From the NCBI RefSeq assembly GCF_003019035.1, contig NZ_CP027447.1: DNA of 64,000 bases; one strand, given 5' to 3'. Each line of letters opens with the position of its first letter. Position 1 is the first letter of the stretch. The notes under the pieces are model-generated. The model had not been told where the DNA came from. It made no database searches and saw only the letters and a program-made list of their open reading frames with translations. This document shows, one piece after another, positions 11,123 through 53,161 of this stretch. Both the position numbers and the translations under genes were made by a program. This DNA comes from Escherichia coli. Lineage in GTDB: Bacteria; Pseudomonadota; Gammaproteobacteria; Enterobacterales; Enterobacteriaceae.

Positions 11123-12142
11123 TTAATCCCCCGTGGACACTGCGTGGACACTCACGCCACCTTTCAGCGGATTAAGGGCCACCGCATCCTGCAGGTAATC
11201 CGGTGCAAAATGTGCATATGCCATTGTTTGCTGAATGGTTGCGTGGCCAAGAATCTTCTGAAGCGCAATAATGTTTCCTCCGTTCATCACAAAATGGCTG
11301 GCGAACGTATGCCGCAGCACATGTGCAGCTTGGCCTTTTGGCAAATCGGGCTTAACTCTTTTCAGCGCCAGGCAGAATTCCCGGTACTTCACCTCAAACA
11401 AGCCGCCTGTTTCTCTGGTTTTGATCGCCTCACAAACTGCCTGCGAAATTGGCACTGTTCTCTTTCGGCCATTTTTGGTTTCAAGAAACGTTACACGGTT
11501 ATGAACTATCTGTTCACCACGAAGCTTACAAGCTTCACTCCAGCGCGCCCCCGTGCTTAAACACAAAAGCGCAACACGCCAGTAATCGCCCTCCAGTGTA
11601 TCGAGCAATAGCGCCACTTCCTTCTGGGACAGGAAAGCCATTTCTCGTGGAGATACATAAAGAATAGAAATTCCCCTTACCGGATGTTCTGCATCCCAGA
11701 GGCCTATTTTCTTCAGTATGGTAAACATTCCGGATAACCGATTCATGTATCTGTTAGCAGATGACGGTTTCAATCCATCAGCTATCTTTTGAGAACGCCA
11801 CGCGATAATTTTTAGCTTATCAAGATCCACAGCCTGCATATCAGCGCCAAGCTCATTGATTATGTTGCGCAGTTGTTTTCGGTCTTCTTCCGCCTTACGC
11901 CTGTGCTGGCCGTGATACATCCACCACAACTCAAGCAAATCATTTAGCGTTCGACGATCACGGTAGCCCTGTATATATTCCCGCTTTTCAGCGTTCGCCA
12001 TGATGTAGCGTTCAGTGGCCACCGCTACCGATTTTTTGTCAAATACCTTACGCACGCGCTTTCCCTTGCGTCCGTTCGGCCTGATGTCCAGCAAATAACG
12101 ACCATCTTCGAGCTTCTTAATCGACATTGCGAAGCCCTCCAA
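11123..12142 (-). CDS. int: Phage integrase (tyrosine recombinase, P2 Int-like)
   Basis: 339 aa; C-terminal catalytic HxxR ... Y motif (HVLRHTFAS ... MAYAHF); adjacent to att core. Confidence 0.9.
   Translation of the reverse strand: MEGFAMSIKKLEDGRYLLDIRPNGRKGKRVRKVFDKKSVAVATERYIMANAEKREYIQGYRDRRTLNDLLELWWMYHGQHRRKAEEDRKQLRNIINELGADMQAVDLDKLKIIAWRSQKIADGLKPSSANRYMNRLSGMFTILKKIGLWDAEHPVRGISILYVSPREMAFLSQKEVALLLDTLEGDYWRVALLCLSTGARWSEACKLRGEQIVHNRVTFLETKNGRKRTVPISQAVCEAIKTRETGGLFEVKYREFCLALKRVKPDLPKGQAAHVLRHTFASHFVMNGGNIIALQKILGHATIQQTMAYAHFAPDYLQDAVALNPLKGGVSVHAVSTGD
11138..11150. repeat. attL core (CACTGCGTGGACA), inside the last codons of int
   Basis: exact 13-bp repeat (17/18 with flank) also at 46825-46837. 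Confidence 0.5.
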
Positions 12143-15866: not shown

Positions 15867-16256
15867 ATGATTGACGCTCATGACTTCACAAGATGGGTGC
15901 GCACACAGGACACCCGTCTGGCTCCCGTTCTTCAGGGATTATTTGATCTCTACATCCGTGGTCGTGACAACAGAGCACGCACCACAAAACCAGAGAATGC
16001 AGACACCCTTTATTTCACAGTAGACGACTGCTACCGCGTGGACTTCACACCACACGGGCTGGCGTTGCACTGCCTGACACCACACGGCGAATCACTACTG
16101 GCTTATTACGACTCCCCGGCCTCCGTATTTGCGGCAATGCTGGCGCATCGCACTGCTGGCGGGTGTGCCTCGCTGAGTGAATACACCGCTGAATTTAACC
16201 GCCTTTCCACCCTCTTCTCGCAGGAGTGGCAGCGCGTGACGGGATACCAGCCATGA
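15867..16256 (+). CDS. Hypothetical protein (early region)
   Basis: 129-aa ORF, stop overlaps gpA start. Confidence 0.5.
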   Translation: MIDAHDFTRWVRTQDTRLAPVLQGLFDLYIRGRDNRARTTKPENADTLYFTVDDCYRVDFTPHGLALHCLTPHGESLLAYYDSPASVFAAMLAHRTAGGCASLSEYTAEFNRLSTLFSQEWQRVTGYQP

Positions 16257-19169: not shown

Positions 19170-20129
19170 ATGAAAATTTGTATCGATGACGGCTCCACCA
19201 ACATCAAGCTGGCATGGACTGAGAACGGCGAACGCCGCAACGCCATCAGCCCGAACAGCTTCAAGTCGGAATGGTCTGCGCCGTTCGGTGGCACGCAGCC
19301 CGCGAACTACATGCTTGATGGCGTGCGCTATGGTTTTGATCCGGTCAGCGATCGCTTTGTCCAGACGACCGACACGCAATACCAGTACAGCGATGTGAAT
19401 GTCATTGCCATTCATCACGCGCTGGTCAAATCAGGCATCACACCACAGGAAGTGGATGTGGTTGTCACCCTGCCACTGAGCGAATATTTCGACACAAACG
19501 CACAGCCGGACATGGCCAACATCAACCGCAAAAAAGCAAACGTCATGCGCCCGGTGGCGTACCAGAACGGAAAAGCATTCACTATCCGTAACGTACGGGT
19601 TATGCCTGAATCCATTCCGGCTGGTTTTAAAGCACTGGCTGACATGAGTCCGTTTGAATCCCTGCTGATTGTGGATTTAGGCGGAACCACGCTGGATGTG
19701 GCAAAGGTTCAGGGACAACTGGCAGGTATCAGCCAGGTGTTTTGCGATCCACACGTAGGCGTTTCCCTGATGGCCGATGCCGTACTGTCGGTGATGGCCA
19801 CTAACGGTATGCGCACCAGTCACCACATCGCCAATACCATTATCGAACATCGCCATGATGAAGCCTGGCTGCGCCAGCACATCCACAATGACGCGCATTA
19901 CGCCAGCCTGATGGCGGTTATTCGTGAAAAGGAAGAAACACTGAAACAACGCGTGATCCGCGCGCTGGCGGTTTTTTCGGGTTACGGGCGGGTGATGGTT
20001 GTCGGTGGCGGGGCGGAGATTGTGGCACCCGCTATCCGCGAAGCCTGCGGAGTTAATGCGACTTTCATCGCGGACGGGGTGCCACAATTTGCTCTGGTTA
20101 ATGGGCTGTACGCAATGAACAAGGAGTAA
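19170..20129 (+). CDS. ParM/StbA-family actin-like segregation ATPase
   Basis: 319 aa; IDDGSTNIKL, ISPNSFK, YSDVNV.A.HHAL, VMPESIPAG, LIVDLGGTTLD, VMVVGGGAE closely parallel plasmid R1 ParM. Confidence 0.85.
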   Translation: MKICIDDGSTNIKLAWTENGERRNAISPNSFKSEWSAPFGGTQPANYMLDGVRYGFDPVSDRFVQTTDTQYQYSDVNVIAIHHALVKSGITPQEVDVVVTLPLSEYFDTNAQPDMANINRKKANVMRPVAYQNGKAFTIRNVRVMPESIPAGFKALADMSPFESLLIVDLGGTTLDVAKVQGQLAGISQVFCDPHVGVSLMADAVLSVMATNGMRTSHHIANTIIEHRHDEAWLRQHIHNDAHYASLMAVIREKEETLKQRVIRALAVFSGYGRVMVVGGGAEIVAPAIREACGVNATFIADGVPQFALVNGLYAMNKE

Positions 20130-20133
20130 ACCA

Positions 20134-20445
20134 ATGACGACACCAACCAGAAGAATAAGTTTCTATCTGAAGCCAGCTGCCGTCAAGAACGAAGGAGAAG
20201 CATGCGCCTGGCTGGACAGTCTTACACCAGAAGCCCGCAAAAGCGGCCAACGCGTGGCTTTTCTGGCCGGGCTGGCACTTCTGAAGACGAATCCGGCAGA
20301 GGCTTACCGACTGGCCGCATGGGCTGATGATGAGATGTTACCTGTGACACAAATCAGCTCAAAAAAGTTTGAAGCACAGTCTGCACCAGTGGCTAAGATA
20401 ACCAGCCAGATGGCTGGGAATATCCGGGCGTTATTTCCTGAGTAA
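20134..20445 (+). CDS. ParR/StbB-like small DNA-binding adaptor
   Basis: 103 aa directly downstream of the ParM-like gene; ISFYLKP and LDSLTPEARKSGQRVAFLAGLAL parallel R1 ParR N-terminus. Confidence 0.7.
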   Translation: MTTPTRRISFYLKPAAVKNEGEACAWLDSLTPEARKSGQRVAFLAGLALLKTNPAEAYRLAAWADDEMLPVTQISSKKFEAQSAPVAKITSQMAGNIRALFPE

Positions 20446-21565: not shown

Positions 21566-22612
21566 TCAGGATGTGGGCTGGGTATCTAACAGTGCGTAAG
21601 GGTTAAAGCGGATCACCTCTTCGCCAAGCCAGTCATTGATGTGCTTCATGGCCTCCATGACGGGCATCAGCTCGTTAATTGCGTAAACCCGCGCGGCCTT
21701 CTCCACATCACCAAACGCACTTTTTTCGCCCGGCATCGCCCCCATCAGTTGCGGCGGAACGCGGTGCGCAGCCAGCACATCATCACGGGATGCCGCCTTA
21801 ACATTCATGAACTCATCTTTTGCGGTGATCTGCTGGAACGGCAAAATTTGCACCCCCTCTTTGCCCCCGTTGGGCGCATGAATGAGCACGTTTTTAAACG
21901 CACCACCACCACGTGCCCCCTGTAGCGTTTCTTTCAGGGAGTCCATGCTTTCGCGGTTTACCTGCGCTGCACCGATGTAGATGATGCACCCGGCGTGGGA
22001 TCCGTTGTCGTAGTACAGTTTTCTGAACATGTCCGCTGAATGAGAAAGGCTGGCCGAGAGTAATGCGCCAAGATATTCCGGCATGCCGTAGATTTCCTGG
22101 TTAATATCCGGATTCATCAGGTGGCACACTTTGCCAGGACGAAACTGGAACGCGTCCTTGCCATCCTGCACATACCACCATGATTCAAGATCGCTTCCGC
22201 GTCGCATGTATTTCGCCAGGGCGTGCCGTAATTTAAGCGGTTCGCCGAGCATATTGCTTCGAAGCTCAAGGAATGCGTTACCGAACACAAACCAGTCCAG
22301 CGCCAGCGCCGAGAAATCCTGCCGGGAAAGCAGCGGGTGCGGGATGTAGCAACCGAGTAATACATTGCGCTTAAAGTAAAGCGCAGACTGATGCCAGGAC
22401 GTTTGCCGGGCAGCTCTTGCCAGACCGTACCAGTCCACCGGGGTTTCATACCACCGCCCGTTATCAGCACAGTACATATTGTCCAGCAGGTCATGCCCGG
22501 TCAGGCGATAAGGACCATCAAATGTGAATGCACTGAGCGATGATTCTTTCCTGAGCGCATCAGCGAGATCAATGCGTGAACTCATGCGCACTTTTTTATT
22601 TTTTCTGCTCAT
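21566..22612 (-). CDS. Portal protein (P2 gpQ-like)
   Basis: 348 aa; position and size as P2 Q, co-oriented and coupled with terminase gene. Confidence 0.9.
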   Translation of the reverse strand: MSRKNKKVRMSSRIDLADALRKESSLSAFTFDGPYRLTGHDLLDNMYCADNGRWYETPVDWYGLARAARQTSWHQSALYFKRNVLLGCYIPHPLLSRQDFSALALDWFVFGNAFLELRSNMLGEPLKLRHALAKYMRRGSDLESWWYVQDGKDAFQFRPGKVCHLMNPDINQEIYGMPEYLGALLSASLSHSADMFRKLYYDNGSHAGCIIYIGAAQVNRESMDSLKETLQGARGGGAFKNVLIHAPNGGKEGVQILPFQQITAKDEFMNVKAASRDDVLAAHRVPPQLMGAMPGEKSAFGDVEKAARVYAINELMPVMEAMKHINDWLGEEVIRFNPYALLDTQPTS

Positions 22613-24363
22613 CAGAACTCCATAACCGTGAAACGCTCGTTTTCTCCTTCGCCGCCAATCGGTTCGTTAATGACAGCAAGCATGGTTGCCCACGCAAGGT
22701 CGCCGTGGCTGATCCCCCTCGCTCGGTCCGTTTCGTAAGTGATAAAGCCGCCCGGTGTTTTCACCTTACGCACGGCGTTAAAGGCCGCGACCAGCTCGCG
22801 TTCGGCGCGATCGTATTCCCACCGCCCGGCACGCATTATTTGCAGCATTTTCAGTACCAGCGACCGTTTTGATGACAGCGTGAAGGTGTACGGAATAGCA
22901 GCAGGGAAAAACCGCTTCACTATCTGATAAACAGCCTCCCCGTTCCCGCCCGTCACATCAATGCCGATGTGTTCCACGTTGTAGCGATACGTGAACTCTT
23001 CAATGACTCTGGCCTGTTCTTCAAACTCCAGCCCCTGAACGCGTCGCGTCTCCACCGTTCGAAAACGGCCACCAGGAACAGCCGGAGGAACCACCACGGA
23101 CACAGCGCCGCTGTCGCCGTTGCCACTACTGCCGTTTGCGTCATACCCAATCCATACCGGACGATTCCCCATCGGGCGGGGAGCAAAAGGTTTCCAGTCT
23201 TTCCAGTCGTCGTATCCGTCAACACCACAGCCAATCAGGATATTCAGGTTAAATGCCGATTCCCCTTCGCGGACAAACTCACACATATAGAGATTGAGGA
23301 ACTCGTCTTCGGTGTTTTCATCACGAATTTCATCAATATCGGTGTGTTTCCAGCCGTGATTAACCACATCTTCCAGCGTGACAATTTGCCGCCACGTCCG
23401 GTCAGGGCAGATAAGCCCGTTATGCAGCGTTTTCCAGTCCACAGAAAAACGCTGGCGTTTATGCGTGGCCTTTTTCTCGTTCCAGCGGTCGCCGTTCCAG
23501 TAGGCGTATGCCTCGTGCGTTTCGGTGGATGGCGTGGAGAAGTAGGTGCGCCGCAGTCCGCTGAGGGTTGCCATAGCGCCAGCCACCTTGCGCAGTTCAG
23601 CAAAGCGACTGACCCAGAAAAATTCATCAAAATAAAAATTGCCCGTATAGGACTGTGCCGACGCAGCAGAAGTGCCGAGAAAATGCAGCTCTGCGCCGTT
23701 GGAGAGGATGATTTTATCACCCCCTTTCAGCTCCACATCAACTTCAGCCGCGGCCTTCTGAATAATGCTTTTAAACTGGAACGCCTGACGACGCGACGCA
23801 GACAAAAAAATCTGGTTACGCTGGTAAGGTTGCGCCACATCGTCACGCAGCGCCATCAGCAGCGCTTCCTGTGCAAAATACCAGGTCGCCCCAATCTGTC
23901 GGGATTTCAGGATCATCCTGTTACGTATCCCGGCTTCCCTGCAAAGGGTCAGGGAGTCAAACCAGCCCCGCTGATGCCACTCCAGCCTGCTGATGATTTT
24001 TTCCCGCAGTGCGGCAATCTGTTCCGGCGTGAAATGATTTTTGAGTTTTTTCGCCCGGCCTTTCTTTCCTGCGGCCATCACATCCGGCTGGCCATCATGC
24101 AGCTTTTTAAGCTGCCGGGTCAGCAGGTCTATTTCCTTAAAGTCACCGCCTGTTTTATTCTGTTTTTCAGTAAGCTGGATGAGGCGCGCATCGATGGACT
24201 GCGTGACACGCTGCACGGGTGGCGTTTCATCCCACTGGTCACGTTTTTTCCACGCATAAATCGTGTTCGGGTTTATTCCCATCAGACGTGATATTTCTGC
24301 GGGCGGATAACCCTGCCAGTAAAGTTGCCGCGCACGCTGGCGCACAAAAGCGTCCTGAATCAT
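22612..24363 (-). CDS. Terminase large (ATPase) subunit (P2 gpP-like)
   Basis: 583 aa; P-Q leftward operon divergent from capsid operon as in P2. Confidence 0.9.
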   Translation of the reverse strand: MIQDAFVRQRARQLYWQGYPPAEISRLMGINPNTIYAWKKRDQWDETPPVQRVTQSIDARLIQLTEKQNKTGGDFKEIDLLTRQLKKLHDGQPDVMAAGKKGRAKKLKNHFTPEQIAALREKIISRLEWHQRGWFDSLTLCREAGIRNRMILKSRQIGATWYFAQEALLMALRDDVAQPYQRNQIFLSASRRQAFQFKSIIQKAAAEVDVELKGGDKIILSNGAELHFLGTSAASAQSYTGNFYFDEFFWVSRFAELRKVAGAMATLSGLRRTYFSTPSTETHEAYAYWNGDRWNEKKATHKRQRFSVDWKTLHNGLICPDRTWRQIVTLEDVVNHGWKHTDIDEIRDENTEDEFLNLYMCEFVREGESAFNLNILIGCGVDGYDDWKDWKPFAPRPMGNRPVWIGYDANGSSGNGDSGAVSVVVPPAVPGGRFRTVETRRVQGLEFEEQARVIEEFTYRYNVEHIGIDVTGGNGEAVYQIVKRFFPAAIPYTFTLSSKRSLVLKMLQIMRAGRWEYDRAERELVAAFNAVRKVKTPGGFITYETDRARGISHGDLAWATMLAVINEPIGGEGENERFTVMEF

Positions 24364-29797: not shown

Positions 29798-30425
29798 GGC
29801 ATTCATCCGCGTGGATAAAACCTTTGAGGCCATCCGCGACAGCCTGAATCAGCAGGCCATCAATAACATCGCCAGAAAGCTGGCACAGGATTTACGCCGC
29901 GCCCAGCAGGCGCGCATCCGGTCACAGAAAGCGCCAGACGGGACCGCATGGACACCACGCAGACGCCGCGCAACCCGGATACAGGAACGCATTCGCTTTA
30001 TCTGGAATAACGAAGCACGCACGCTGAAAAACTGGCATCACGACACGGGGAAATACGGGCGAACCATTACCGGGTGGGATGAGGATAAAAACAATATCCG
30101 CACGTTTTATCGGGATGACATCGACCGTTTTCTGGAAATACGCACCCGGCGCATCAACCAGGACAGCACAAAGCGCGTCCCCATGTTCGTAAAACTGCGC
30201 ACCGCCCGCTACCTGAAAGCCCGTGCAGATGCTTCCGGTGTGACGGTGGGTTACAGCGGCGTAGCCGCACGTATTGCCCGCGTTCATCAGTACGGTGAGC
30301 GCGATCAGGTTGCGCCGGGCATTTTCACCGATTACCCGGTACGTGAGCTGCTGGGTATCAGCCAGGCAGATGAGCGCCTGATTTATAACACGGTGCTGGG
30401 CCGGATTGCGGAGGCTGTACGGTGA
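29781..30425 (+). CDS. Tail completion / virion morphogenesis protein S (P2 gpS-like)
   Basis: position between R and V; basic N-terminal region. Confidence 0.75.
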   Translation: MKAMDKAFIRVDKTFEAIRDSLNQQAINNIARKLAQDLRRAQQARIRSQKAPDGTAWTPRRRRATRIQERIRFIWNNEARTLKNWHHDTGKYGRTITGWDEDKNNIRTFYRDDIDRFLEIRTRRINQDSTKRVPMFVKLRTARYLKARADASGVTVGYSGVAARIARVHQYGERDQVAPGIFTDYPVRELLGISQADERLIYNTVLGRIAEAVR

Positions 30426-31003
30426 GCGCAGAACTCATGCGACTGCTGAGCAATATCATCCGCACCGGGATCATCTCTGAAGTTGATGAGAAGTCCTGGC
30501 GCGTGCGCGTTCGCAGCGGCGAACTGGAAACAGGCTGGTTGCGCTGGAACACCACGCGCGCGGGAGCCTTCAATGTGTGGCTGCCGCCATCAGTGGGCGA
30601 ACAGGTGGTAATTGCCTGCATTGGCGGCAACCCGGAAACCGCCATGATAATTGGCAGCCTGTGGAGTGATGCCAATCCGGCCCCCGGCAAAAGCCTGAAA
30701 GAAATCGTGGTCAGCGCGCCGGATGGCGCGGTGTTCCGCTACGACGCGGACGCAGGCGCACTGAGCGCCAGCGGCATGAAAACGGCCACCCTGCAGGCAT
30801 CCGTCAGTGTGACACTGGACACACCTGTCGTGGAATGCACAGACCTTCTGAGAACAGCGACGCTTGACGTCACAAAAGGAGGAAAGATGAGCGGCAATAT
30901 CACGCACAGCGGCGGCAACTTCACCTCAAACGGCATTACCGTGCATACGCATAAACACGGTGGCGTGAAAGGCGGCAGCGATTCGACAGGAGGCCCGCAG
31001 TGA
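30422..31003 (+). CDS. Baseplate assembly protein V (spike)
   Basis: 193 aa; gpV-type OB-fold region; order V-W-J-I as in P2. Confidence 0.85.
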   Translation: MSAELMRLLSNIIRTGIISEVDEKSWRVRVRSGELETGWLRWNTTRAGAFNVWLPPSVGEQVVIACIGGNPETAMIIGSLWSDANPAPGKSLKEIVVSAPDGAVFRYDADAGALSASGMKTATLQASVSVTLDTPVVECTDLLRTATLDVTKGGKMSGNITHSGGNFTSNGITVHTHKHGGVKGGSDSTGGPQ

Positions 31004-31350
31004 CAACCCGCTACACAGGAATGAATCCGGACGGGACGGGAAACCTGAACGATATGGAGCACCTGAAACAGTCAGTCAGGGATATCCTGACCACCCCGCT
31101 GGCAAGCCGGGTTATGCGACGGGAATATGGCAGCCTTGTGCCTGATTTGATTGACGAACCCATGAATAACACCACGCGTCTGCAATGCATGAGTGCTGCC
31201 GTGATTGCGCTGACACGATGGGAACCCCGCATTGCCCTGGATGCCATCGACGTTGTCTGGAAAGCGGGAGGCCGCGCCGGGGTGACGCTGTCGGGCACTG
31301 TCATGCAGACCATGCAGAATGTTGAGTTAACCATCACGCTGAGGGAGTAA
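31000..31350 (+). CDS. Baseplate protein W (gpW/gp25 family)
   Basis: 116 aa, size and position match P2 W. Confidence 0.85.
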   Translation: MTTRYTGMNPDGTGNLNDMEHLKQSVRDILTTPLASRVMRREYGSLVPDLIDEPMNNTTRLQCMSAAVIALTRWEPRIALDAIDVVWKAGGRAGVTLSGTVMQTMQNVELTITLRE

Positions 31351-31353
31351 ATC

Positions 31354-32250
31354 ATGCCCGCCGTTGACCTTTCCCAGTTACCGGAACCCGCCATCATCGC
31401 GGAGCCTGACTTTGAGGCAATTCTGGCTGACACAAAGGCCATGATGATTGCGGCTTATCCCGCCGAACAGCGTGAAGCCGTCTCCGCCGCGCTGGAGCTG
31501 GAATCGGAACCCCTGAACGTTATCGCCCAGACAACAGCGTTTCGTGAAATGCTGTTACGCCAGCGGGTCAATGAGGGGGCACGCGCCTGCATGTTAAGCC
31601 ACAGCGCCGGGACAGACCTGGACAACCTCGCGGGCAATATGAACACAAAGCGCCTGACCATCACTCCGGCAACGGATACCACCGACGCAGTGATGGAAAG
31701 TGACACCTCGCTGAGACTGCGGGCGCAGCGGGCGTACGATGGCCTGAGTGTTGCTGGCCCGTCAGGTGCATACGAGTATTTTGCCCGCAGCGCCAGCGGT
31801 CTGGTGCGTGATGCGCGGGCTATCAGTCCGTCTCCGGCAAATGTGACGGTTTCCATCCTGTCCACTGAAGGCGACGGCACAGCAACGGAGGCGTTGCTTA
31901 ATACCGTTCGCGCCGTTCTGAATGCAGAGGATACCCGCCCGGTGGCCGACCGCCTTACTGTACAGAGCGCCAGCATCGTGACATGGCGGCTGAATGCAAA
32001 ACTGTACTTTTACCCCGGCCCGGAATCCGAACCTATTCTGGCCGCGGCTGAATCGTCGTTCAGGAAGTGGCTGGCTGAGCAGGGGCTTATCGGTCAGGAC
32101 GTGGCGTTGTCCGCCATTGCTGCCGCACTGCATGTGCACGGTGTGCAACGCGTGGAGATAATCGAACCCACACAGAATATGGCCATCAGCGACATACAGG
32201 CGGCGCGCTGTGAGTCATTCACCATCAGCGAAGGTGGGCGCAATGAGTAA
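31354..32250 (+). CDS. Baseplate protein J
   Basis: 298 aa, size and position match P2 J. Confidence 0.85.
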   Translation: MPAVDLSQLPEPAIIAEPDFEAILADTKAMMIAAYPAEQREAVSAALELESEPLNVIAQTTAFREMLLRQRVNEGARACMLSHSAGTDLDNLAGNMNTKRLTITPATDTTDAVMESDTSLRLRAQRAYDGLSVAGPSGAYEYFARSASGLVRDARAISPSPANVTVSILSTEGDGTATEALLNTVRAVLNAEDTRPVADRLTVQSASIVTWRLNAKLYFYPGPESEPILAAAESSFRKWLAEQGLIGQDVALSAIAAALHVHGVQRVEIIEPTQNMAISDIQAARCESFTISEGGRNE

Positions 32251-32851
32251 TTCGTTGTTACCACCATCAGCCAGCAATTTCATGCGTTGTGCCGAAGCCG
32301 TCGGAACACGCATTACAGACATTCCGGTAGACCTCAACACGCTGTGGTCGCCGGACACCTGCCCGGTGCATCTGCTGCCTTATCTCGCCTGGGCGTTTTC
32401 CGTTGACCGCTGGGATCGCAACTGGCCGGAAGAGACAAAGCGACAGGTGATTCGTGATGCATGGCTGATACACCGACACAAAGGGACCATCAGCGCACTG
32501 CGAAGAGCCGTGGAGCCTCTCGGCTACCTGATTGAAGTAAAGGAGTGGTGGCAACTCAACGAGGAGCCGGGAACATTTCGCATTGTTGTCGGAGTACTTG
32601 ATCAGGGCATCACCGATGAAATGTATCAGGAACTTGAGCGCCTTATTGCGGATGCAAAACCAGTAAGTCGCCATCTGACAGGGCTGGCGATCAGCCTGAG
32701 TGTGAACGGAAAGATTTTCGTTGGTACGGGATGCTATCACGGCGATGCCCTGACGGTTTATCCCTACACCCCGGAGTCCATTATTGTCGAAGGGGATTAT
32801 TTCCCTGCCCCGGCCATTCATTTAATTGATAATCTGAGAGTAAACGCATGA
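32243..32851 (+). CDS. Baseplate/tail protein I
   Basis: start at MSNSLLPP overlapping gpJ stop; position matches P2 I. Confidence 0.8.
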   Translation: MSNSLLPPSASNFMRCAEAVGTRITDIPVDLNTLWSPDTCPVHLLPYLAWAFSVDRWDRNWPEETKRQVIRDAWLIHRHKGTISALRRAVEPLGYLIEVKEWWQLNEEPGTFRIVVGVLDQGITDEMYQELERLIADAKPVSRHLTGLAISLSVNGKIFVGTGCYHGDALTVYPYTPESIIVEGDYFPAPAIHLIDNLRVNA

Positions 32852-34353
32852 CAGTGAAATACTACGCCATTCTGACTAATCAGGGCGCGGCACGACTGGC
32901 TAACGCGACGATGCTCGGCAGTAAGCTGAATCTGACGCAAATGGCCGTTGGTGATGCAAATGGTGTGTTACCAACACCAGACCCTGCACAAACAAAACTG
33001 ATTAACCAGAAACGCATTGCACCGCTGAATCTTCTGAGTGTTGACCCTAACAATCAGAGCCAGATTATTGCGGAACAAATCATCCCTGAAAACGAGGGAG
33101 GATTCTGGATCCGTGAGATTGGTCTTTATGATGATGAAGGCGTACTTATTGCGGTGGCAAACTGCCCGGAAACGTACAAACCGCAGTTGCAGGAAGGCAG
33201 TGGACGCACCCAGACTATCCGCATGATTCTGGTTGTCACGAACACCGAAGCCATCACGCTGAAAATCGACCCGTCAGTGGTTCTGGCAACCCGCAAATAT
33301 GTGGATGATAAAATCTCAGAGCACGAACAGTCACGACGTCACCCGGACGCCTCGCTGACCGTAAAAGGTTTTACTCAGTTAAGCAGTGCAATTAACAGTG
33401 AATCAGAAACACTGGCCGCAACACCGAAAGCGGTTAAGGCTGCATATGACCTGGCTAACAGGAAATATACCGCCCAGAACGCCACCACTACACAAAAAGG
33501 GATTGTTCAGCTCAGTAGCGCCACGAACAGCACGTCTGAAACGCTGGCAGCGACACCAAAAGCTGTTAAGGCGGTAATGGATGAAACGAACAAGAAAGCA
33601 CCATTAAACAGCCCGGCACTGACCGGAACGCCAACAACACCAACAGCGCCACAGGGGACTAATAATACCCAGATCGCAAGCACGGCTTTCGTTATGGCTG
33701 CGATTGCCGCACTTGTAGATTCGTCCCCTGATGCACTGAACACGCTGAACGAACTGGCTGCGGCGCTGGGCAATGACCCGAACTTTGCGACTACCATGAC
33801 TAACGCGCTTGCGGGTAAGCAATCGAAGGATGCCACCCTGACGGCGCTGGCGGAGCTTGCTACATCAGCAGATAAACTCCCATATTTTACAGGGGCAGAT
33901 CGTGCCGCGTTAACCGCGTTGACAAGTGTTGGACGTGCCATTCTTGGTAAAACCAGCACTCAGGGAGTTCTTGATTACCTTGGTTTGGGGGAAGGCTCTG
34001 CGCTGCCCGTTGGTGTACCTGTTCCATGGCCCTCAGCCACACCGCCAACGGGGTGGCTAAAATGTAACGGAGCAGCATTTTCTTCTGAAAAATACCCCAA
34101 ACTGGCAAAGGCTTACCCAACGTTAAAATTACCGGATTTACGGGGTGAGTTTATCCGTGGCTGGGATGATGGGCGCGGGATTGATGCGGGACGTACCCTG
34201 CTTTCTGGGCAGGATGGTACAAGTTTTTCTCATTACGGAGGTAATTTCGACATTGGGTCTGGTCATTCAATCAATAACTATGACCAAATTGTTTCTAACC
34301 AACCAGGCTTTTCCCGTTTTTCATTTGCGGGCCTTCACGAGGTGATGGGTTAA
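32848..34353 (+). CDS. Tail fibre protein H, constant region fused to a C-terminal cassette that carries a frameshift
   Basis: 501 aa; contains crossover site at 33968-33993 and the conserved GEGSALPVGVPVPWP...RGEFIRGWDDGRG block; ORF ends before the conserved cassette terminus, which is out of frame at 34364-34411. Confidence 0.85.
   Translation: MTVKYYAILTNQGAARLANATMLGSKLNLTQMAVGDANGVLPTPDPAQTKLINQKRIAPLNLLSVDPNNQSQIIAEQIIPENEGGFWIREIGLYDDEGVLIAVANCPETYKPQLQEGSGRTQTIRMILVVTNTEAITLKIDPSVVLATRKYVDDKISEHEQSRRHPDASLTVKGFTQLSSAINSESETLAATPKAVKAAYDLANRKYTAQNATTTQKGIVQLSSATNSTSETLAATPKAVKAVMDETNKKAPLNSPALTGTPTTPTAPQGTNNTQIASTAFVMAAIAALVDSSPDALNTLNELAAALGNDPNFATTMTNALAGKQSKDATLTALAELATSADKLPYFTGADRAALTALTSVGRAILGKTSTQGVLDYLGLGEGSALPVGVPVPWPSATPPTGWLKCNGAAFSSEKYPKLAKAYPTLKLPDLRGEFIRGWDDGRGIDAGRTLLSGQDGTSFSHYGGNFDIGSGHSINNYDQIVSNQPGFSRFSFAGLHEVMG
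33968..33993 (+). repeat. Invertase crossover site 1 (hix/gix-like 26 bp), inside H
   Basis: TTCTTGATTACC-TT-GGTTTGGGGGAA; left half resembles hix TTCTTGAAAACC; right half shared with five other sites. Confidence 0.7.
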
Positions 34354-34404
34354 TTATGTAACCATTCGTCCTCGTAATATTGCGTTTAATTACATCGTAA
34401 GGGC

Positions 34405-34430
34405 AGCATAAAAACGTTGGTTTGGGGAAG
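34405..34430 (+). repeat. Invertase crossover site 2
   Basis: AGCATAAAAACG-TT-GGTTTGGGGAAG, same orientation as site 1. Confidence 0.65.
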
Positions 34431-34897
34431 GCTCTGCGCTGCCCGTTGGTGTACCTGTTCCATGGCCCTTAGAAACACCGCCAACGGGGTGGCTAAAATG
34501 TAACGGAGCAGCATTTTCTTCTGAAAAGTACCCCAAGCTGGCAAAAGCCTACCCCACCAATAAATTACCGGATTTACGGGGTGAATTTATTCGTGGCTGG
34601 GATGATGGGCGAGGAATTGATGCAGCACGCGCTTTATTGAGCATTCAAACCGGGATGTTGGAAAAACACCGCCATATTGTTGTAGCTAACGATGGATATG
34701 ACACAAAGGATGAATGGGAGTTGGCCACGATTTTCAAAAAAACATATACACAAGGCAGGGGGCTTGATGCCACAAATACAGGAGGGAGTTTGATTCCATC
34801 ACCAACGCTTCATTCACGAGGAAGTATTGGTAACACAGGTGGTAGTGAAACCCGCCCCCGCAATATTGCATTTAACTATATCGTGAGGGCGGCTTAG
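34431..34897 (+). other. Promoterless alternative tail-fibre C-terminal cassette (cB)
   Basis: begins with conserved GEGSALPVGVPVPWP... block right after site 2, ends with conserved ...ETRPRNIAFNYIVRAA; no start codon of its own. Confidence 0.6.
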
Positions 34898-34903
34898 TTA
34901 TAT

Positions 34904-35515
34904 TCAACTGGCTGCTGCCAGTGGTATTTCCGGCCAGTTGATATCTGATGCCATGTTTATATCCATTGCGTTCAGTGCGTCTATATAATCCAGCACGGCG
35001 TTAAGCCGGGTGGTTTCTGCCTGCGTCAACTTCCGCCCGGCCCGCAACTTCAACTGAATCAGACTAATGGAAGCCATTGCAGTATCAATCAGCGACTGGC
35101 GCTGTGTTTCTGCCGCTTCTACTGCGGCGCTATGCTGTGCCTCGGTATCCGTCACCCATTTTTCACCATCCCATTTATCGTATGGTGTTAACGGGGCGAT
35201 AGTGGTTGTATTTTTCGGGTAGTCACCCAGCGTCGTGATTTCTTCGGTGTTTCCCGTATCAGTGCTATAGACGGTTTCACCACGATGATCTGGCGTATAC
35301 TCCCATGAATTTAAATTCTCCGAACGGCGGATAGCATAGCCCGCTTTATGTGCGCCCGGGGCATCTAAACAGGAATTTGCCGGAATACCGACACCCGCAG
35401 CAAGATATTCAGTTGATTCGGAAATATATTCCCGTGTCTCACCATCATAGTTATAAACGACGATGTTTCCTGCCTGTACGGCAATAAGGTCATCATTTAA
35501 TATCGCGTTATTCAT
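34904..35515 (-). CDS. Tail fibre assembly protein (Tfa; P2 gpG / Mu U family)
   Basis: 203 aa; typical Tfa size and composition; directly follows cassette c1 on the minus strand. Confidence 0.85.
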   Translation of the reverse strand: MNNAILNDDLIAVQAGNIVVYNYDGETREYISESTEYLAAGVGIPANSCLDAPGAHKAGYAIRRSENLNSWEYTPDHRGETVYSTDTGNTEEITTLGDYPKNTTTIAPLTPYDKWDGEKWVTDTEAQHSAAVEAAETQRQSLIDTAMASISLIQLKLRAGRKLTQAETTRLNAVLDYIDALNAMDINMASDINWPEIPLAAAS

Positions 35516-35964
35516 TATGCGGTTCTCACAATATAATTGAAGGCAATATTGCGTGGGCGGGTTTCATTCCCCTCTGAGGATTCCGTTCTGTATTGACTGG
35601 TAAATCTACCGTTAATTGCACCTTGCCGGACGGCGTTATCTGTCGACAACAGACTATCCCCTCCTTTGTCATTTGGCACCAGTACCGTGTTATCCCACGC
35701 ATCCCATGACCGAATATTATGATAATGACTTCCTGTTAACCACCCCTGCATGCTTAAGATGCCCCTTCCGGCATCCACCCCGCGCCCATCATCCCAGCCA
35801 CGAATAAATTCACCCCGTAAATCCGGTAATTTTAACGTTGGGTAAGCCTTTGCCAGTTTTGGATACTTTTCAGAAGAAAATGCTGCTCCGTTACATTTTA
35901 GCCACCCAGTTGGCGGCGTGGCTGAGGGCCATGGAACGGGCACACCAACGGGCAGCGCAGAGCC
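35515..35964 (-). other. Alternative tail-fibre C-terminal cassette c1 (minus strand)
   Basis: GEGSALPVGVPVPWP...RGEFIRGWDDGRGVDAGR..., variable middle, ends ...ETRPRNIAFNYIVRTA. Confidence 0.65.
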
Positions 35965-35990
35965 TTCCCCCAAACCAACGTTTTCATGCT
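35965..35990 (-). repeat. Invertase crossover site 3
   Basis: minus strand AGCATGAAAACG-TT-GGTTTGGGGGAA. Confidence 0.65.
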
Positions 35991-36442
35991 GCCCTTACGA
36001 TGTAATTAAACGCAATGTTATGGGGGCGTGTTTCAGATGCTGTGCGAACTGAGCGAGAGGCGTCGAATGTCCATACAGAAGCACCATATCCTTCAATGAT
36101 CTCAGTTGGTTGTAAGCCTACTGATAATATAGAGTCAGTTTGACTAAATGGTCCTGAATTAAACGCATCTTTAAAAAGCTGAGTACGCCCAAAAGTGCCA
36201 ACTATATTCTGAATAGCGTCAGACTGTGCAGACAGTAGGTTGCGCCCATTATCAACGCCCCGTCCGTCATCCCAGCCGCGAATAAATTCGCCCCGTAAAT
36301 CCGGTAATTTATTGGTGGAGTAGGCCTTTGCCAGATTGGGGTACATTTCAGAAGAAAATGCTGCGCCGTTACATTTCAGCCACCCCGTTGGCGGCGTGGC
36401 TGAGGGCCATGGAACGGGCACACCAACGGGCAGCGCAGAGCC
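35984..36442 (-). other. Alternative tail-fibre C-terminal cassette c2
   Basis: same conserved 5' block, distinct variable region, ends ...RPHNIAFNYIVRAA. Confidence 0.65.
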
Positions 36443-36468
36443 TTCCCCCAAACCAACGTTTTTATGCC
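36443..36468 (-). repeat. Invertase crossover site 4
   Basis: minus strand GGCATAAAAACG-TT-GGTTTGGGGGAA. Confidence 0.65.
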
Positions 36469-36881
36469 GCCCTTACGATGTAATTAAATGCGATATTTCG
36501 CGGCCTGACAGCAACAAAATTTATACCATCACCTACAGAGTTACTGGTGAAATTAAATCGTGAAAATCCTGGCTGATTTCCGACGATGCCATCATGAAAA
36601 TTAATTGCGTGCCCCGCACCATCACCTATATTTCCGGCACGCTGAGAAAAATTTGTAGCCTCTTGGCTGCTTAATAATGCTCGCCCATTGTCCACACCTC
36701 GTCCATCATCCCAACCTCGAATAAATTCGCCCCGTAGATCCGGCAATTTATTGGTGGGGTAAACCTTTGCCAGATTTGGGTACTTTTCAGAAGAAAATGC
36801 TGCTCCGTTACATTTCAGCCACCCCGTTGGCGGTGTGGCTGAGGGCCATGGAACAGGTACACCAACGGGCAGCGCAGAGCC
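36462..36881 (-). other. Alternative tail-fibre C-terminal cassette c3
   Basis: same conserved 5' block, distinct variable region, ends ...VRPRNIAFNYIVRAA; the cassette currently fused to H looks like a frameshifted relative of this one. Confidence 0.65.
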
Positions 36882-36907
36882 TTCCCCCAAACCAACGTTT
36901 TCATGCG
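36882..36907 (-). repeat. Invertase crossover site 5
   Basis: minus strand CGCATGAAAACG-TT-GGTTTGGGGGAA. Confidence 0.65.
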
Positions 36908-37398
36908 GCTCTTACGATGTAATTAAACGCAATGTTACGAGGACGGTTTTCGTTTGCAGTTGGAACAATTCTTGAAGCATCAAGGCCAATCACTTTTGGG
37001 TAAACAGCGCCATCTGTTCTTTCTGTCACCATACTTCTGACTAAGGAGAAATAACTATTGTTCGTTGAGGGGCTCAAAGGCACTACTGCCCCCTTAAACG
37101 AACCTACTGATTCCCATATTGAATAATTTTCGGTGTTTACAGTCTTGAACTCACCATAGATATTACGTATGGCATCGCCCTGAGCGGATAATATTGCCCT
37201 CCCCGTATCCATACCACGTCCGTCATCCCAGCCACGAATAAATTCACCCCGTAAATCCGGTAATTTTAACGTTGGGTAAGCCTTTGCCAGTTTTGGATAC
37301 TTTTCAGAAGAAAATGCTGCTCCGTTACATTTTAGCCACCCAGTTGGCGGCGTGGCTGAGGGCCACGGAACGGGCACACCAACGGGCAGTGCAGAGCC
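36901..37398 (-). other. Alternative tail-fibre C-terminal cassette c4
   Basis: same conserved 5' block, longest variable region, ends ...NRPRNIAFNYIVRAA. Confidence 0.65.
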
Positions 37399-37424
37399 TT
37401 CCCCCAAACCAACGTTTTCGTTTT
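37399..37424 (-). repeat. Invertase crossover site 6
   Basis: minus strand AAAACGAAAACG-TT-GGTTTGGGGGAA. Confidence 0.6.
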
Positions 37425-37478
37425 TATCCCTACCTATACCAACTATGTATTTTTCACGAAACAAAGAGGATGTTTTTT

Positions 37479-38078
37479 ATGCAAATTGGCTATATTCGTG
37501 TGTCAACAAATGACCAGAACACGGATTTACAACGCAATGCACTGAACTGCGCAGGATGTGAACTGATTTTTGAAGATAAAATCAGCGGAACGAAATCAGC
37601 CAGACCGGGATTGAAAAAACTGCTCAGAACGCTATCAGAAGGAGATACGCTGGTTGTCTGGAAGCTGGACAGACTGGGCAGAAGTATGAAACACCTGATT
37701 ACGCTTATTGAGGAATTGCGGGAAAAAGGTGTTAATTTCCGTAGTCTGACGGACAGCATTGACACATCAACACCCATGGGGCGTTTCTTTTTTCACGTCA
37801 TGGGGGCTTTAGCCGAAATGGAACGTGAATTAATTGTAGAGCGTACACTGGCCGGACTGGCAGCAGCACGCGCACAAGGACGCATTGGCGGACGTCGCCC
37901 GAAGTTGACAAAAGAACAACACGAGCAAATAGCGAGGCTGATTAAAAACGGTCATGACAGGAAACAACTGGCGATCATTTACGACATCGGCATATCGACG
38001 ATTTATCGTTATCACCCTGTAGGCGATATACAGGCTGAAGAAACAACCAGGCAGACTCAGGAAAATGAAAACCGCTAA
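37479..38078 (+). CDS. Serine DNA invertase (Hin/Gin/Cin/Pin family)
   Basis: 199 aa; N-terminal GYIRVSTNDQ catalytic Ser motif, resolvase core, C-terminal HTH; AGAGGA Shine-Dalgarno. Confidence 0.9.
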   Translation: MQIGYIRVSTNDQNTDLQRNALNCAGCELIFEDKISGTKSARPGLKKLLRTLSEGDTLVVWKLDRLGRSMKHLITLIEELREKGVNFRSLTDSIDTSTPMGRFFFHVMGALAEMERELIVERTLAGLAAARAQGRIGGRRPKLTKEQHEQIARLIKNGHDRKQLAIIYDIGISTIYRYHPVGDIQAEETTRQTQENENR

Positions 38079-38098
38079 TCTGACCATTAGCGGTTTTG
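38066..38098. terminator. Bidirectional hairpin terminator between convergent invertase and gpU genes
   Basis: AAACCGCTAAT-loop-ATTAGCGGTTT with flanking T/A runs. Confidence 0.5.
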
Positions 38099-38104
38099 CG
38101 TTAA

Positions 38105-38599
38105 TCAAAACAGCCCTTTAACGGAGCTGGCCGCGCTGTTAAGGGATGATGTGACCTTATCTTTGAAGCCGGACAGCATATCACTGAACGATGAGGATTG
38201 CAGGCGCTCCCGCAAATCCTCATCACAGCGTTCAAGAGTCAGTGAAAATTCTATCTTTTTCGCCTTACCGTAGCGATCAAACTCGGAGCGGGTCGTATTC
38301 GTTTCAGTCAGTACATACATGCCGTAAATCTGCCCGACACCATCAATCAGAGGCCAGGGGCGTCCTGTATATGCCTGCGTGGTCAGCAGCGAAAGCGACA
38401 CTTCGCCACCTGTAATTTCAGGATAAAGCACGCCAGAAAGCACGATGCGATCATCACCTGCACCGATATACTGCCAGCTTGCTGAGCGGTTTACGCGCTC
38501 ATTTTTCACATGCCGCCAGCTTTTGTTTTGCTGTAACTGCTGATGCGGCAGTGTGCGCAGCTCAAAAACAAACATGCCGTAGATCATCATCATGACCAT
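38105..38599 (-). CDS. Tail protein U (P2 gpU-like)
   Basis: 164 aa; FVFELRTLPHQQLQ N-terminus resembles P2 gpU. Confidence 0.8.
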   Translation of the reverse strand: MVMMMIYGMFVFELRTLPHQQLQQNKSWRHVKNERVNRSASWQYIGAGDDRIVLSGVLYPEITGGEVSLSLLTTQAYTGRPWPLIDGVGQIYGMYVLTETNTTRSEFDRYGKAKKIEFSLTLERCDEDLRERLQSSSFSDMLSGFKDKVTSSLNSAASSVKGLF

Positions 38600-38605
38600 G
38601 ACTCC

Positions 38606-49441: not shown

Positions 49442-50662
49442 TTAATCTTTCAGCTTACGCATTACCAGCGTGGCGTTGGTGCCGCCGAAGCCGAAGCTGT
49501 TAGACATAACGGTAGTCAGTTCGCGATCGGTCGTTTCGGTCACAATGTTCAGACCCGCAGCCTGCTCGTCCAGCTCTTCAATGTTGATGCTCGGTGCGAT
49601 AAAGCCGTGTTCCAGCATCAGCAGAGAGTAGATAGCTTCCTGTACGCCAGCAGCGCCCAGAGAGTGACCGGTCATTGCTTTGGTTGCAGAAATCGCCGGG
49701 CTCTTATCGCCGAACACTTCACGGATAGCCGCCAGCTCTTTCACGTCGCCAACCGGAGTCGAAGTACCGTGGGAGTTCAGGTAGTCGATTGGGGTATCAA
49801 CACCGTGCATCGCCATCTTCATGCAGCGCACTGCACCTTCGCCAGACGGAGCAACCATGTCTGCGCCATCAGAGGTTGCGCCGTAGCCAACGATTTCAGC
49901 ATAGATGTGAGCACCACGCGCCAGCGCGTGTTCCAGCTCTTCAACCACTACCATACCGCCACCGCCAGCGATAACGAAACCGTCACGGTGAGCGTCGTAA
50001 GTACGGGAGGCTTTTTCCGGGGTGTCGTTGTATTTAGTAGACAGCGCACCCATCGCGTCGAATTCACAAGCCATTTCCCAGCACAATTCTTCGCCGCCAC
50101 CAGCAAACACGATGTCCTGTTTGCCCAGTTGGATCTGCTCTACTGCGTTACCGATACAGTGTGCGGAAGTCGCACACGCGGAGCTGATGGAGTAGTTAAC
50201 GCCGTGAATTTTAAACGGCGTGGCGAGGCAGGCAGAAACGCCGGATGCCATCGCTTTGGTGACCACATACGGGCCAACCGCTTTCAGGCCGCGCGGGCCG
50301 CGCATTGCGTCAGCGCCGAAAACCTGGAAACGCGGGGAGCCGCCGCCGGAACCTGCAATCAGGCCAACGCGCGGGTTATTCTGGTAAGCTTCCGGGGAGA
50401 GGCCAGCATCTGCAATTGCCTGCTCCATAGAAAGGAATGCATAAATGGATGCGTCGCTCATAAAGCGCACAACTTTGCGGTCAATGAGGCCAGTGGTATC
50501 CAGTTTTACGTTGCCCCAGACGTGGCTACGCATGCCGGAATCCTTCAGCTCCTGAGAGAAAGTGATCCCTGAACGTCCTTCACGCAGAGATGCCAGGACT
50601 TCCTGCTGGTTATTACCGATGCTGGAAACAATGCCCAGGCCAGTAATCACTGCACGTTTCAT
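49442..50662 (-). CDS. fabB: 3-oxoacyl-ACP synthase I
   Basis: 406 aa, condensing-enzyme Cys-His-His architecture; matches remembered FabB. Confidence 0.95.
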
Positions 50663-50754
50663 TCAATACCTCTGTAAGTCGCACATAGAGTAAGTTTCGC
50701 ATGCACAATAGCGTACACTTGTACGCCGAACAAGTCCGATCAGCCAATTAATAG

Positions 50755-52827
<2,073 letters not shown>

Positions 52828-52845
52828 TCTGCTCTGGCATTGCTT

Positions 52846-52875
52846 GCCGGATATGGCGTGAACGCCGCATCCGGC
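52846..52875. repeat. REP-like palindrome
   Basis: GCCGGATATGGCGTGAACGCCGCATCCGGC. Confidence 0.4.
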
Positions 52876-52882
52876 ACATTAC

Positions 52883-53161
52883 TTACTGCTGTGACGCCTG
52901 CTGAAACAGGTGTTCCCACATATCGGTCACCAGCGCCTGGTCACGCGGCGACAATTCACCGGCACCAATGGCTTTTTCCAGACTCTGGCTAACGGTTGTA
53001 TGTACCGCCTGAGCGGAGTGGTCGTCACCACTTTCCAGTTCTGCGATGGCTAATGTCAGGTGGCCACGCAAATACCCACTGGCAAACAACTCATCATCAC
53101 TGGCATGGTCAACCATACCGTCGATTAATGCCAGAATGCGTGATTCAAACTCCGCGATCAT
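52883..53161 (-). CDS. yfcL: YfcL (DUF1493-type small protein)
   Basis: 92-aa ORF at conserved position. Confidence 0.8.

Follow-up and report, generated by a model that had tools for sequence, protein, structure and literature searches.

Evidence for a Min-type multiple DNA inversion system in the tail-fibre gene of an Escherichia coli P2-like prophage

Results

Organization of the tail-fibre locus

The window analyzed in this work, a continuous stretch of 64 kb of E. coli DNA, carries a P2-like prophage whose integrase, gpA-like, sheath, gpU and gpD genes are recognizable by PHROG and Pfam. Its tail genes follow the V-W-J-I-H order and its H product has the gpH-like N-terminal and shaft region of a P2-type (Peduoviridae) tail fibre; with respect to the P2 gene order, FI-FII-E-T-U are here on the opposite strand. 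P2 gpH is 74% identical to H over about residues 26-383, and this homology stops at a crossover site located inside H. An array of six sites, six tip cassettes, a tail-fibre assembly gene (tfa) and a DNA invertase gene extends from there (Table 1).

Table 1. Coordinates of the elements of the inversion module in the 64-kb window. Sites are written in the sense of the cassettes; siblings are further assemblies carrying the same module.
Feature	Position	Strand	Remarks
H constant part, aa 1-378	32848..33981	+	Ends at TT core of s1; Pfam Phage_tail_fib and 2x Phage_fiber_2
Site s1	33968-33993	+	TTCTTGATTACC TT GGTTTGGGGGAA; inside H
Cassette c1	33982..34411	+	Currently fused to H; ORF stop 34353; ancestral stop 34409-34411
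Site s2	34405-34429	+	AGCATAAAAACG TT GGTTTGGGG-AA; one G short
Cassette c2	34419..34897	+	Open, but in +2 frame relative to H; variable part 100% identical to sibling cassettes
tfa, tail-fibre assembly gene, 203 aa	34904..35515	-	Pfam Caudo_TAP 1.8e-33; PHROG 105 tail fiber assembly
Cassette c3	35515..35976	-	One unit with tfa
Site s3	35965-35990	-	AGCATGAAAACG TT GGTTTGGGGGAA
Cassette c4	35984..36454	-	Fused to H in siblings L082, L083
Site s4	36443-36468	-	GGCATAAAAACG TT GGTTTGGGGGAA
Cassette c5	36462..36893	-	Fused to H in siblings L078, L080, L085, L087
Site s5	36882-36907	-	CGCATGAAAACG TT GGTTTGGGGGAA
Cassette c6	36901..37410	-	Fused to H in sibling L081
Site s6	37399-37424	-	AAAACGAAAACG TT GGTTTGGGGGAA; adjoins invertase gene
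Serine DNA invertase, Gin/Cin/Pin/Min type, 199 aa	37479..38078	+	Pfam, PDB, E2348/69 comparison
Putative recombinational enhancer segment	37497..37564	+	Homology to enhancer annotated inside P7 cin
Hairpin, 12-bp stem	38068..38097	.	Between convergent invertase and gpU genes

Five exact copies of the 12-mer GGTTTGGGGGAA are present (33982 on the plus strand; 35965, 36443, 36882 and 37399 on the minus strand), with all copies falling within 3.4 kb and none elsewhere in the window, against a chance expectation of about 0.008 matches for an exact 12-mer in 128 kb. A sixth copy of this half-site, at 34419 on the plus strand, is one G shorter (GGTTTGGGG-AA). The form common to the six sites is a 26-bp sequence in which a left and a right half-site flank a TT dinucleotide (N12-TT-GGTTTGGGGGAA), the two-half-site design with a common 2-bp core that characterizes the Din family, and all six agree in form and consensus with published functional sites, such as that of EC958 Phi2, GAGAGATAAACG TT GGTTTGGGGGAA (Forde et al. 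2014). The sites are ordered + + - - - - within 3.5 kb and the invertase gene starts 55 bp past s6. A repeat finder locates inverted and direct repeats of 207-239 nt, 83-93% identical, that start at the sites, and on the upstream side homology breaks off abruptly at the TT core.

All six cassettes are open and start with GLGEGSALPVGVPVPWP...RGEFIRGWDDGRG. They share an N-terminal block of about 64 aa, with 57-62 of the first 62 residues identical in every pair, followed by variable cores that present only 18-38% aa identity among cassettes, and converge again on the C-terminal tail RPRNIAFNYIVRAA. Each tip is thus formed by a tail-collar domain cassette whose variable core is unrelated to the others. 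The predicted H::c3, H::c4, H::c5 and H::c6 fusions are in frame and translate through to a stop; H::c3-tfa is colinear in 35 E. coli genomes, the second assembly of strain E2348/69 among them, and H::c6 is also colinear in other E. coli genomes.

The gene that closes the array encodes a small serine recombinase of the Din family (Gin/Cin/Pin/Hin/Min), with a resolvase catalytic domain (Pfam Resolvase, residues 3-135, 2.7e-51), a nucleophilic serine and a C-terminal helix-turn-helix (HTH_7, residues 138-180, 3.4e-12). The Gin structure 4m6f matches it at E = 3e-91, aligned over residues 1-185, and the serine of the invertase's YIRVSTNDQ motif falls on Gin Ser9 in the alignments with 4m6f and 3uj3 (E about 1e-91). 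A preliminary description of the locus had placed six crossover sites here, two in plus and four in minus orientation, each preceding a tip cassette, and a Hin/Gin-family invertase gene at the end. The 12-mer search and the site alignment agree with it on the sites and their coordinates, a cassette with the common start follows each of the six, and the Resolvase and HTH_7 domains with the catalytic serine uphold the family of the invertase. The coordinates given for the invertase gene and for tfa are likewise correct. The common N-terminal block, on the other hand, had been put at about 45 aa and is longer as measured here.

The mechanism of this recombinase family calls for host Fis, bound at an enhancer that lies within the invertase's own gene, near its 5' end. 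The homologous segment of the present gene is identical to the annotated P7 enhancer in 54 of 68 positions and to the active E2348/69 gene in all 68, and inversion here may likewise depend on Fis and the enhancer. The hairpin that follows the gene is a likely two-way terminator.

Natural isomers and their junctions

A homologous locus has been studied experimentally in E. coli O127:H6 E2348/69, where a P2-like prophage carries a three-site invertible tail-fibre locus, inversions 1891695-1893703 and 1892127-1893703 were detected by sequencing and four coexisting variants were confirmed by PCR (Goldberg et al. 2014, Genome Med 6:112). The inversion coordinates are exactly those of its sites, of which the leftmost, middle and rightmost are identical to s1, s3 and s6, respectively. 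Two deposited E2348/69 assemblies are related by a reciprocal inversion between s1 and s3, whose exchange can be placed within <=38 bp around the site. Both loci share the prophage type and the arrangement V W J I H, array, invertase and then U-T on the opposite strand; their DNA is 96% identical, the three E2348/69 cassettes correspond to c1, c2 and c3-tfa, and the invertases differ in one of 199 residues (199 of 200 aligned positions match, stop codon included; 597 of 600 nt). Unlike E2348/69, the module described here has three additional cassettes (c4, c5 and c6) and three additional sites between c3 and the invertase, which allow 240 arrangements instead of four.

The same six-cassette module is present in seven NCBI assemblies, one of them a closed chromosome, in seven further arrangements, with the caveat that, when short reads come from a mixed population, an assembly may link genuine junctions in an overall order not present in any one molecule. 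In these siblings the constant part of H, c2-c6, tfa and the invertase are 100% identical to those in the window, H is joined to c4, c5 or c6, and tfa occurs in either orientation. The site orientations set four simple segments (c1, c4, c5 and c6) and one double-ended segment (c2 / tfa-c3); enumeration of the reachable arrangements from these orientations, whose grammar all the siblings obey, yields six alternative H C-termini and two tfa orientations. The proposal that inversion swaps the C-terminus of H is thus borne out by the in-frame predicted fusions, by the experiments on the three-site homologue and by the seven natural isomers.

In each of the 42 junctions of the seven siblings, the upstream 30 nt agree in full (30/30) with a single left flank and the 215-nt block is identical in 214-215 of 215 positions to that of its own cassette, with no mosaics. 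These unmixed blocks point to exchange at the sites and not to general homologous recombination, which might otherwise make the rearrangements through RecA-dependent exchange between the inverted repeats of 207-239 nt, the invertase and its sites being incidental. Such repeats are indeed long and similar enough to invite this explanation, and invertase dependence lay outside what Goldberg et al. (2014) tested. Nonetheless, crossovers internal to the repeats would have been exposed by the 11-30 polymorphisms that distinguish each pair, the exchange between the E2348/69 assemblies is confined to the immediate surroundings of a site and homology ends sharply on the upstream side of the TT core. 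Variant fractions of 10-50% within a colony are also far above those expected from recombination between short diverged repeats. Furthermore, work on the related system of an Enterobacter phage included, for comparison, the sequencing of a strain constructed to lack gin (PMC13418256). We consider RecA-driven rearrangement very improbable and favor site-specific inversion by the invertase.

The number of cassettes might itself be questioned, since contigs of alternative alleles can give rise to artefactual duplications in phage tail regions (Forde et al. 2014), and the array could in principle consist of alleles of a smaller invertible region stitched in tandem by the assembler. The six variable cores, however, are all different and none duplicates another, seven independent assemblies, the closed chromosome among them, contain the identical six cassettes, and arrays of 6-8 sites are common elsewhere. 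Hence, we attach practically no weight to an assembly artefact and take the six cassettes as genuine.

Frameshifts in c1 and c2

Three 1-bp deletions in G runs, none of them compensated, are seen at 34328 and 34346, within c1, and at 34423, within s2. The first two cause the early stop of c1, leaving its conserved tail out of frame, and the missing G of s2 puts c2 out of frame relative to H. These frameshifts of the present assembly had been overlooked in the preliminary description. In the sibling assemblies c1 is intact, ending ...GDGVNYVTIRPRNIAFNYIVRAA, the s2 position has G5 in all seven modules and both c1 and c2 are in frame. The three deletions are probably consensus errors private to this assembly. 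Should they be real, two of the six tips would be dead and the right half-site of s2 would be altered.

Taken at face value, the three uncompensated deletions, together with a tfa gene that is antisense to H in the present arrangement, would fit a decaying relic, with a truncated H, c2 out of frame and no functional fibres made, whether or not flipping persists. Against this, all three lesions are contractions of G runs, clustered within 96 bp and devoid of accompanying substitutions, and none of them is shared by the seven sibling modules, as would be the case for consensus errors where the sequenced culture was heterogeneous for the junction. Other G4 sites come from L005, L008, L031 and L071, the first two being visibly error-rich records. 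Moreover, cassettes c3-c6 are intact, as are tfa, the invertase gene and the rest of the tail genes, and a single inversion would swap c1 for an intact tip. A relic therefore seems unlikely to us, and we retain the view of an active array whose sequence here probably contains consensus errors.

A single tfa gene in two orientations

The start codon of tfa overlaps the stop codon of c3 (TAATG), and no second tfa was found in the window by tblastn. That one Tfa should serve all the cassettes, as previously suggested, is consistent with this single gene, but tfa lies on the strand opposite to H in the present isomer and in 120 of the 240 enumerated, and none of these 240 lets c2 and tfa be expressed from one strand. 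The two orientations split 4:4 across the eight isomers seen so far, so that neither of them is avoided in lysogens. No promoter was found for tfa, promoter-like matches being at chance level. It is conceivable, if rather doubtful, that the double-ended segment (c2 / tfa-c3) constitutes a second, independent switch, whose flipping would place tfa within the H operon in one state and antisense to H in the other. The module would then specify six tips in two chaperone states and c2 would be made only with tfa antisense, implying that some collar-type tips fold without Tfa, that another prophage supplies a chaperone in trans or that tfa is transcribed from a promoter working in either orientation.

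Discussion

The invertase domains, the anatomy of the sites, the predicted fusions, the E2348/69 homologue and the natural isomers agree in supporting the earlier proposal of a Min-like multi-site module in a P2-type tail-fibre gene. With more than two sites in both orientations, overlapping invertible segments, one invertase gene and alternative arrangements of both the identical module (in seven assemblies) and its E2348/69 homologue, the locus is very probably an active system of multiple DNA inversion of the Min type, housed in the tail-fibre gene of an E. coli P2-like prophage. Inversion should also take place in this particular lysogen.

In the mechanism proposed here, the Gin-like serine invertase would pair any two oppositely oriented 26-bp sites and cut at their common TT core, leading to inversion of the intervening DNA. 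The right half-site and the next 215-nt block make up the start of a cassette, and the left half-site the end of the preceding element; by virtue of this division, each inversion would give H, after its 378 constant codons, a different tip in the correct reading frame. As in Mu, P1 and p15B, the different tips presumably bind different receptors and a population of lysogens might thus release virions of mixed host ranges. The host-range reading is supported by the tail-fibre "shufflon" of the Enterobacter prophage FRphi, where long reads of prophage and virion DNA reveal three C-terminal isoforms under a gin-type recombinase, and only one isoform infects the tested host, via FhuA (Nat Microbiol 2026, PMC13418256). 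Set beside FRphi by its description, the present module has six tips instead of three and a different phage backbone.

More generally, the module represents a well-known type of host-range switch of phages in an enlarged version. It shares with Mu Gin/G, P1 and P7 Cin/C and e14 Pin/P the recombinase family, the 26-bp sites with a 2-bp core and the swap of the fibre C-terminus, and the enhancer lodged in the invertase gene of these two-state systems, near its 5' end, has a putative counterpart at the same place. Unlike the module, they rely on two sites, one segment and an assembly gene per tip (S-U / S'-U'), as opposed to six tips and one tfa. In the R64 shufflon, the Rci tyrosine recombinase acts on sfx sites and the target is the PilV pilus adhesin. 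As in R64-type shufflons, clustered multi-site inversions swap the C-terminus of one protein, and the label "shufflon-like" given to the locus in the preliminary description can be kept as an analogy only. A true R64-type shufflon is ruled out, as the module encodes no recombinase other than its serine invertase.

In the Min system of plasmid p15B, a Din-family serine invertase is combined with six sites and with invertible segments that overlap one another and provide the tail-fibre gene with alternative 3' ends; the system reportedly forms 240 isomers (Sandmeier, Iida and Arber 1990 and 1992; Iida 1990). Set beside this description, the present module has the same number of sites, the same type of invertase and, by enumeration, the same number of isomers. 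It differs from p15B in residing in a chromosomal P2-type prophage and in a constant part that is P2 gpH-like, not P1 S-like. The module had been portrayed as more elaborate than Mu, P1 and e14, which is true with respect to those three, but it is not unusual, since public phage contigs and P1-like plasmids often carry arrays of 6-8 sites. Homologous modules on E. coli P1-like plasmids have seven sites, with an invertase 97%, cassettes 76-100% and a tfa product 83% identical in amino acid sequence.

A Min-type tail-fibre switch in a P2-like prophage

The preliminary description of this region had read it as a six-site tail-fibre inversion module resembling Min, the multiple inversion system of plasmid p15B. 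Our analysis upholds that reading in substance: the module is a six-site, Min-type switch of tail-fibre tips in a P2-like prophage and, with 240 predicted isomers (alternative arrangements of its invertible segments), it is almost certainly active. The six 26-bp crossover sites (s1-s6) share one form when read in cassette sense, with a 12-nt left half that varies, TT as the core and a right half that is constant, and this design is that of the gix, cix, pix, hix and mix sites. Five exact copies of the 12-mer GGTTTGGGGGAA are present in the 64 kb, all within 33982-37410, and a sixth, at 34419, lacks one G. In E. coli EC958, a nearly identical site (GAGAGATAAACG TT GGTTTGGGGGAA) bounds one side of a segment found in either orientation. 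Repeats reach 207-239 nt past each site at 83-93% identity and encode a common block of about 64 amino acids at the start of all six tip cassettes (c1-c6, named after the sites they follow); beyond this block the cassettes share 18-38% identity, and then reconverge on the tail RPRNIAFNYIVRAA.

The fibre gene H combines P2-type N-terminal and shaft domains with a tail-collar domain at the cassette start, and resembles P2 gpH (74%) up to s1 and no further; in the comparison with P2, the P2 tip and gene G bore no relation to the cassettes and tail-fibre assembly gene (tfa) of the window. The latter (Caudo_TAP) is the only copy in the window and overlaps the stop codon of c3. The recombinase ORF encodes Resolvase and HTH_7 domains, and residues 1-185 of its product, in which the catalytic serine motif is present, align to crystal structures of Mu Gin (E = 3e-91). 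In an NCBIfam search all recombinase hits fell below the cutoff, and the fibre parts yielded no matches. Since the recombinase is a serine invertase, a true (Rci) shufflon is ruled out.

Coordinates of the switch and its prophage setting
Feature	Coordinates	Strand	Remark
P2-like prophage			about 36 kb, between pdxB and flk
pdxB	9807-10964		
Integrase	11123-12142	-	P2-like prophage
gpA-like replication protein	16226-19093		P2-like prophage
Partition-like genes	19170-20445		
Putative portal and terminase genes	21566-24363	-	assigned by position and size
V-W-J-I-H	30422-34353	+	array and invertase next
H constant part	32848-33981	+	
Crossover site s1	33968	+	
Crossover site s2	34405	+	
tfa	34904-35515	-	
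Crossover site s3	35965	-	
Crossover site s4	36443	-	
Crossover site s5	36882	-	
Crossover site s6	37399	-	
TGT-N12-ACA dyad	37446-37463		between s6 and invertase
Invertase	37479-38078		
Sheath, tube, E, tape measure, U	38105-43690	-	
gpD	43716-44957	+	
ogr-like gene	45000-45260		
Com-like ORF	45833-46039		
DNA methyltransferase	45984-46775		near prophage right end
flk	47005-48000		

The closest complete genome for the flanks, SCU-301, has identical flanks and no prophage at the corresponding place, and the integration point is therefore expected between pdxB and flk (window 10964-47005). The window derives from the E. coli chromosome; over positions 47000-53000, identity is 100% to SCU-301 and 98.8% to the remaining E. 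coli genomes among the best matches listed. Relative to V-W-J-I-H and gpD, the block from sheath to U is encoded on the other strand, an inversion with respect to classical P2 that E2348/69 and further E. coli relatives share. Two adjacent genes of this integrated prophage, located between the replication and putative portal genes, match partition-protein PHROG families (319 aa, PHROG 691; 103 aa, PHROG 2515). Finally, a small zinc-ribbon ORF that matches the translational regulator Com of Mu (PHROG 13819, 2e-17) overlaps the start of a DNA methyltransferase gene with a DPPY motif; the layout resembles com-mom, but the cargo is a methyltransferase.

Relation to the three-site system of E2348/69

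The closest complete genome to the module is that of E. coli E2348/69 (96% identity), whose P2-like prophage has the same gene order as that of the window, but three sites and three cassettes. Goldberg et al. (2014) reported two overlapping inversions in E2348/69 (NC_011601.1 1891695-1893703 and 1892127-1893703), confirmed four coexisting variants by PCR and named the locus a shufflon; their inversion coordinates correspond to the three sites that we located in the E2348/69 record. These three sites are identical to s1, s3 and s6; over the 68-nt counterpart of the annotated P7 cin enhancer, the window and E2348/69 agree at every position; and their invertases differ by a single amino acid close to the C-terminus. 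Two deposited assemblies of E2348/69 represent distinct states, one with H fused to cA and tfa antisense, the other with H, cC and tfa colinear, and the pair displays a clean reciprocal exchange confined to at most 38 bp around the site. The six-site switch is a larger relative of this published system, and the understanding of how such switches work is unchanged by it.

Predicted and natural arrangements

If every site is taken to join a left end to a cassette start, the array resolves into four simple segments (c1, c4, c5 and c6) and a double-ended one, with c2 at one end and, oppositely directed, tfa plus c3 at the other. When inversions between sites of opposite orientation were enumerated breadth-first, 240 arrangements were reached, and every cassette can be placed next to H. 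The tfa gene flips with c3, lying on the strand of H in 120 of the 240 arrangements and antisense to it in the other half; c2 is expressible only with tfa antisense, and tfa never shares a strand with H when c2 is the expressed tip. The fusions of H to c3, c4, c5 and c6 are all in frame, and both H::c3-tfa and H::c6 are present in further E. coli genomes, each as one colinear match.

Public assemblies with the identical tfa account for 257 index blocks. An exact look-up of the Tfa protein returned ten NCBI assemblies, seven of which carry the same module. DNA identity of these siblings to the window is 100% for the end of the H constant part, c2-c6, tfa and the invertase, and 99% for c1. The seven present seven other arrangements, with H fused to c4 (two), c5 (four) or c6 (one) and tfa on either strand. 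Their phage backbones vary (the U-T region is either 94% or 100% identical), and hence they are not one clone. All eight arrangements, window included, obey the predicted grammar. At each of the 42 junctions the 30 nt upstream are a perfect match to one of the six left flanks, and the 215-nt conserved block that follows agrees at 214-215 positions with the block proper to the cassette downstream. These blocks differ pairwise at 11-30 positions and remain unmixed, from which it follows that exchange takes place at the sites rather than within the repeats; this argues for the invertase over general recombination. An assembly-duplication artefact was likewise considered, and rejected because all cassettes are different.

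Two further loci, L084 (GCA_042862725.1) and L086 (GCA_020949535.1), hold cassettes 100% identical to those of the window, but only four and three of the six, respectively, which suggests occasional deletion by recombination between same-orientation sites or blocks.

Biological interest centres on the single tfa gene, and whether its chaperone is needed by all tips is a testable question. Regarding a promoter for tfa in its antisense state, sigma-70-like matches were at chance level (7 versus 6.6 expected). Of the P2 late-promoter dyad, TGT-N12-ACA, there is a single copy, situated between s6 and the invertase; across the window the motif shows no enrichment (12 versus 14.8 expected), and the known late operons are not marked by it. 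This dyad is a lead only: its form is that of the activator site of P2 late promoters, and its placement could drive leftward transcription from c6 through c3 to tfa.

G-run deletions in two cassettes

In the present arrangement H::c1 terminates prematurely by 19 codons, and the reading frame of c2 is not that of H. Over some 12 kb, comparison with E2348/69 and the seven siblings yields no uncompensated indels other than three 1-bp deletions (34328, 34346 and 34423). All three shorten G-runs and have no substitutions nearby; they fall inside 96 bp that span the c1-s2-c2 joint, and none is present in the seven sibling modules. Other G4 sites among the loci examined are those of L005, L008, L031 and L071, the first two being visibly error-rich records. 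We consider it fairly probable that the three deletions are consensus errors, introduced at a joint carried by only part of the sequenced population; otherwise, they represent private decay of two tips, c1 and c2. An exact look-up of the truncated 501-aa H found no record in other assemblies, a result that fits a private lesion as well as an error and proves neither. Error or decay alike, four tips are intact and c1 is replaceable by a single inversion. For genome assembly, the implication is that each assembly freezes one of 240 isomers, and consensus errors appear to cluster at heterogeneous junctions; for annotation, that the cassettes are routinely labelled as separate "phage tail proteins".

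Distribution of the module

The exact internal-site pattern matched 67 stretches of IMG/VR contigs, and a relaxed count gave up to eight sites per locus, with at least six in nine loci. Two of the matched contigs are P2-like: their gpJ, gpI and H-constant proteins are 97-100% identical to those of the window, their invertases are 100% identical, and each has six sites by the relaxed count. A homologous module, with seven sites and one tfa, resides in P1-like plasmids of E. coli, which we take to be the situation of p15B Min, and c1, c2 and c5 are among the cassettes common to P2-like prophages and P1-like plasmids (95-100% amino acid identity). The six-variant Min design has long counted as an oddity of plasmid p15B; among the chromosomal P2-like prophages of E. 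coli it is a module both common and mobile. To phage biologists and engineers it offers a compact natural set of six exchangeable, putative receptor-binding tips that share a shaft, together with only one chaperone gene. Among individual loci, L009 (pJMK02, NZ_CP180395.1 8061-12153) is a P1-like plasmid with the seven-site, one-tfa module, and the IMG/VR contigs L035 and L065 have eight sites each.
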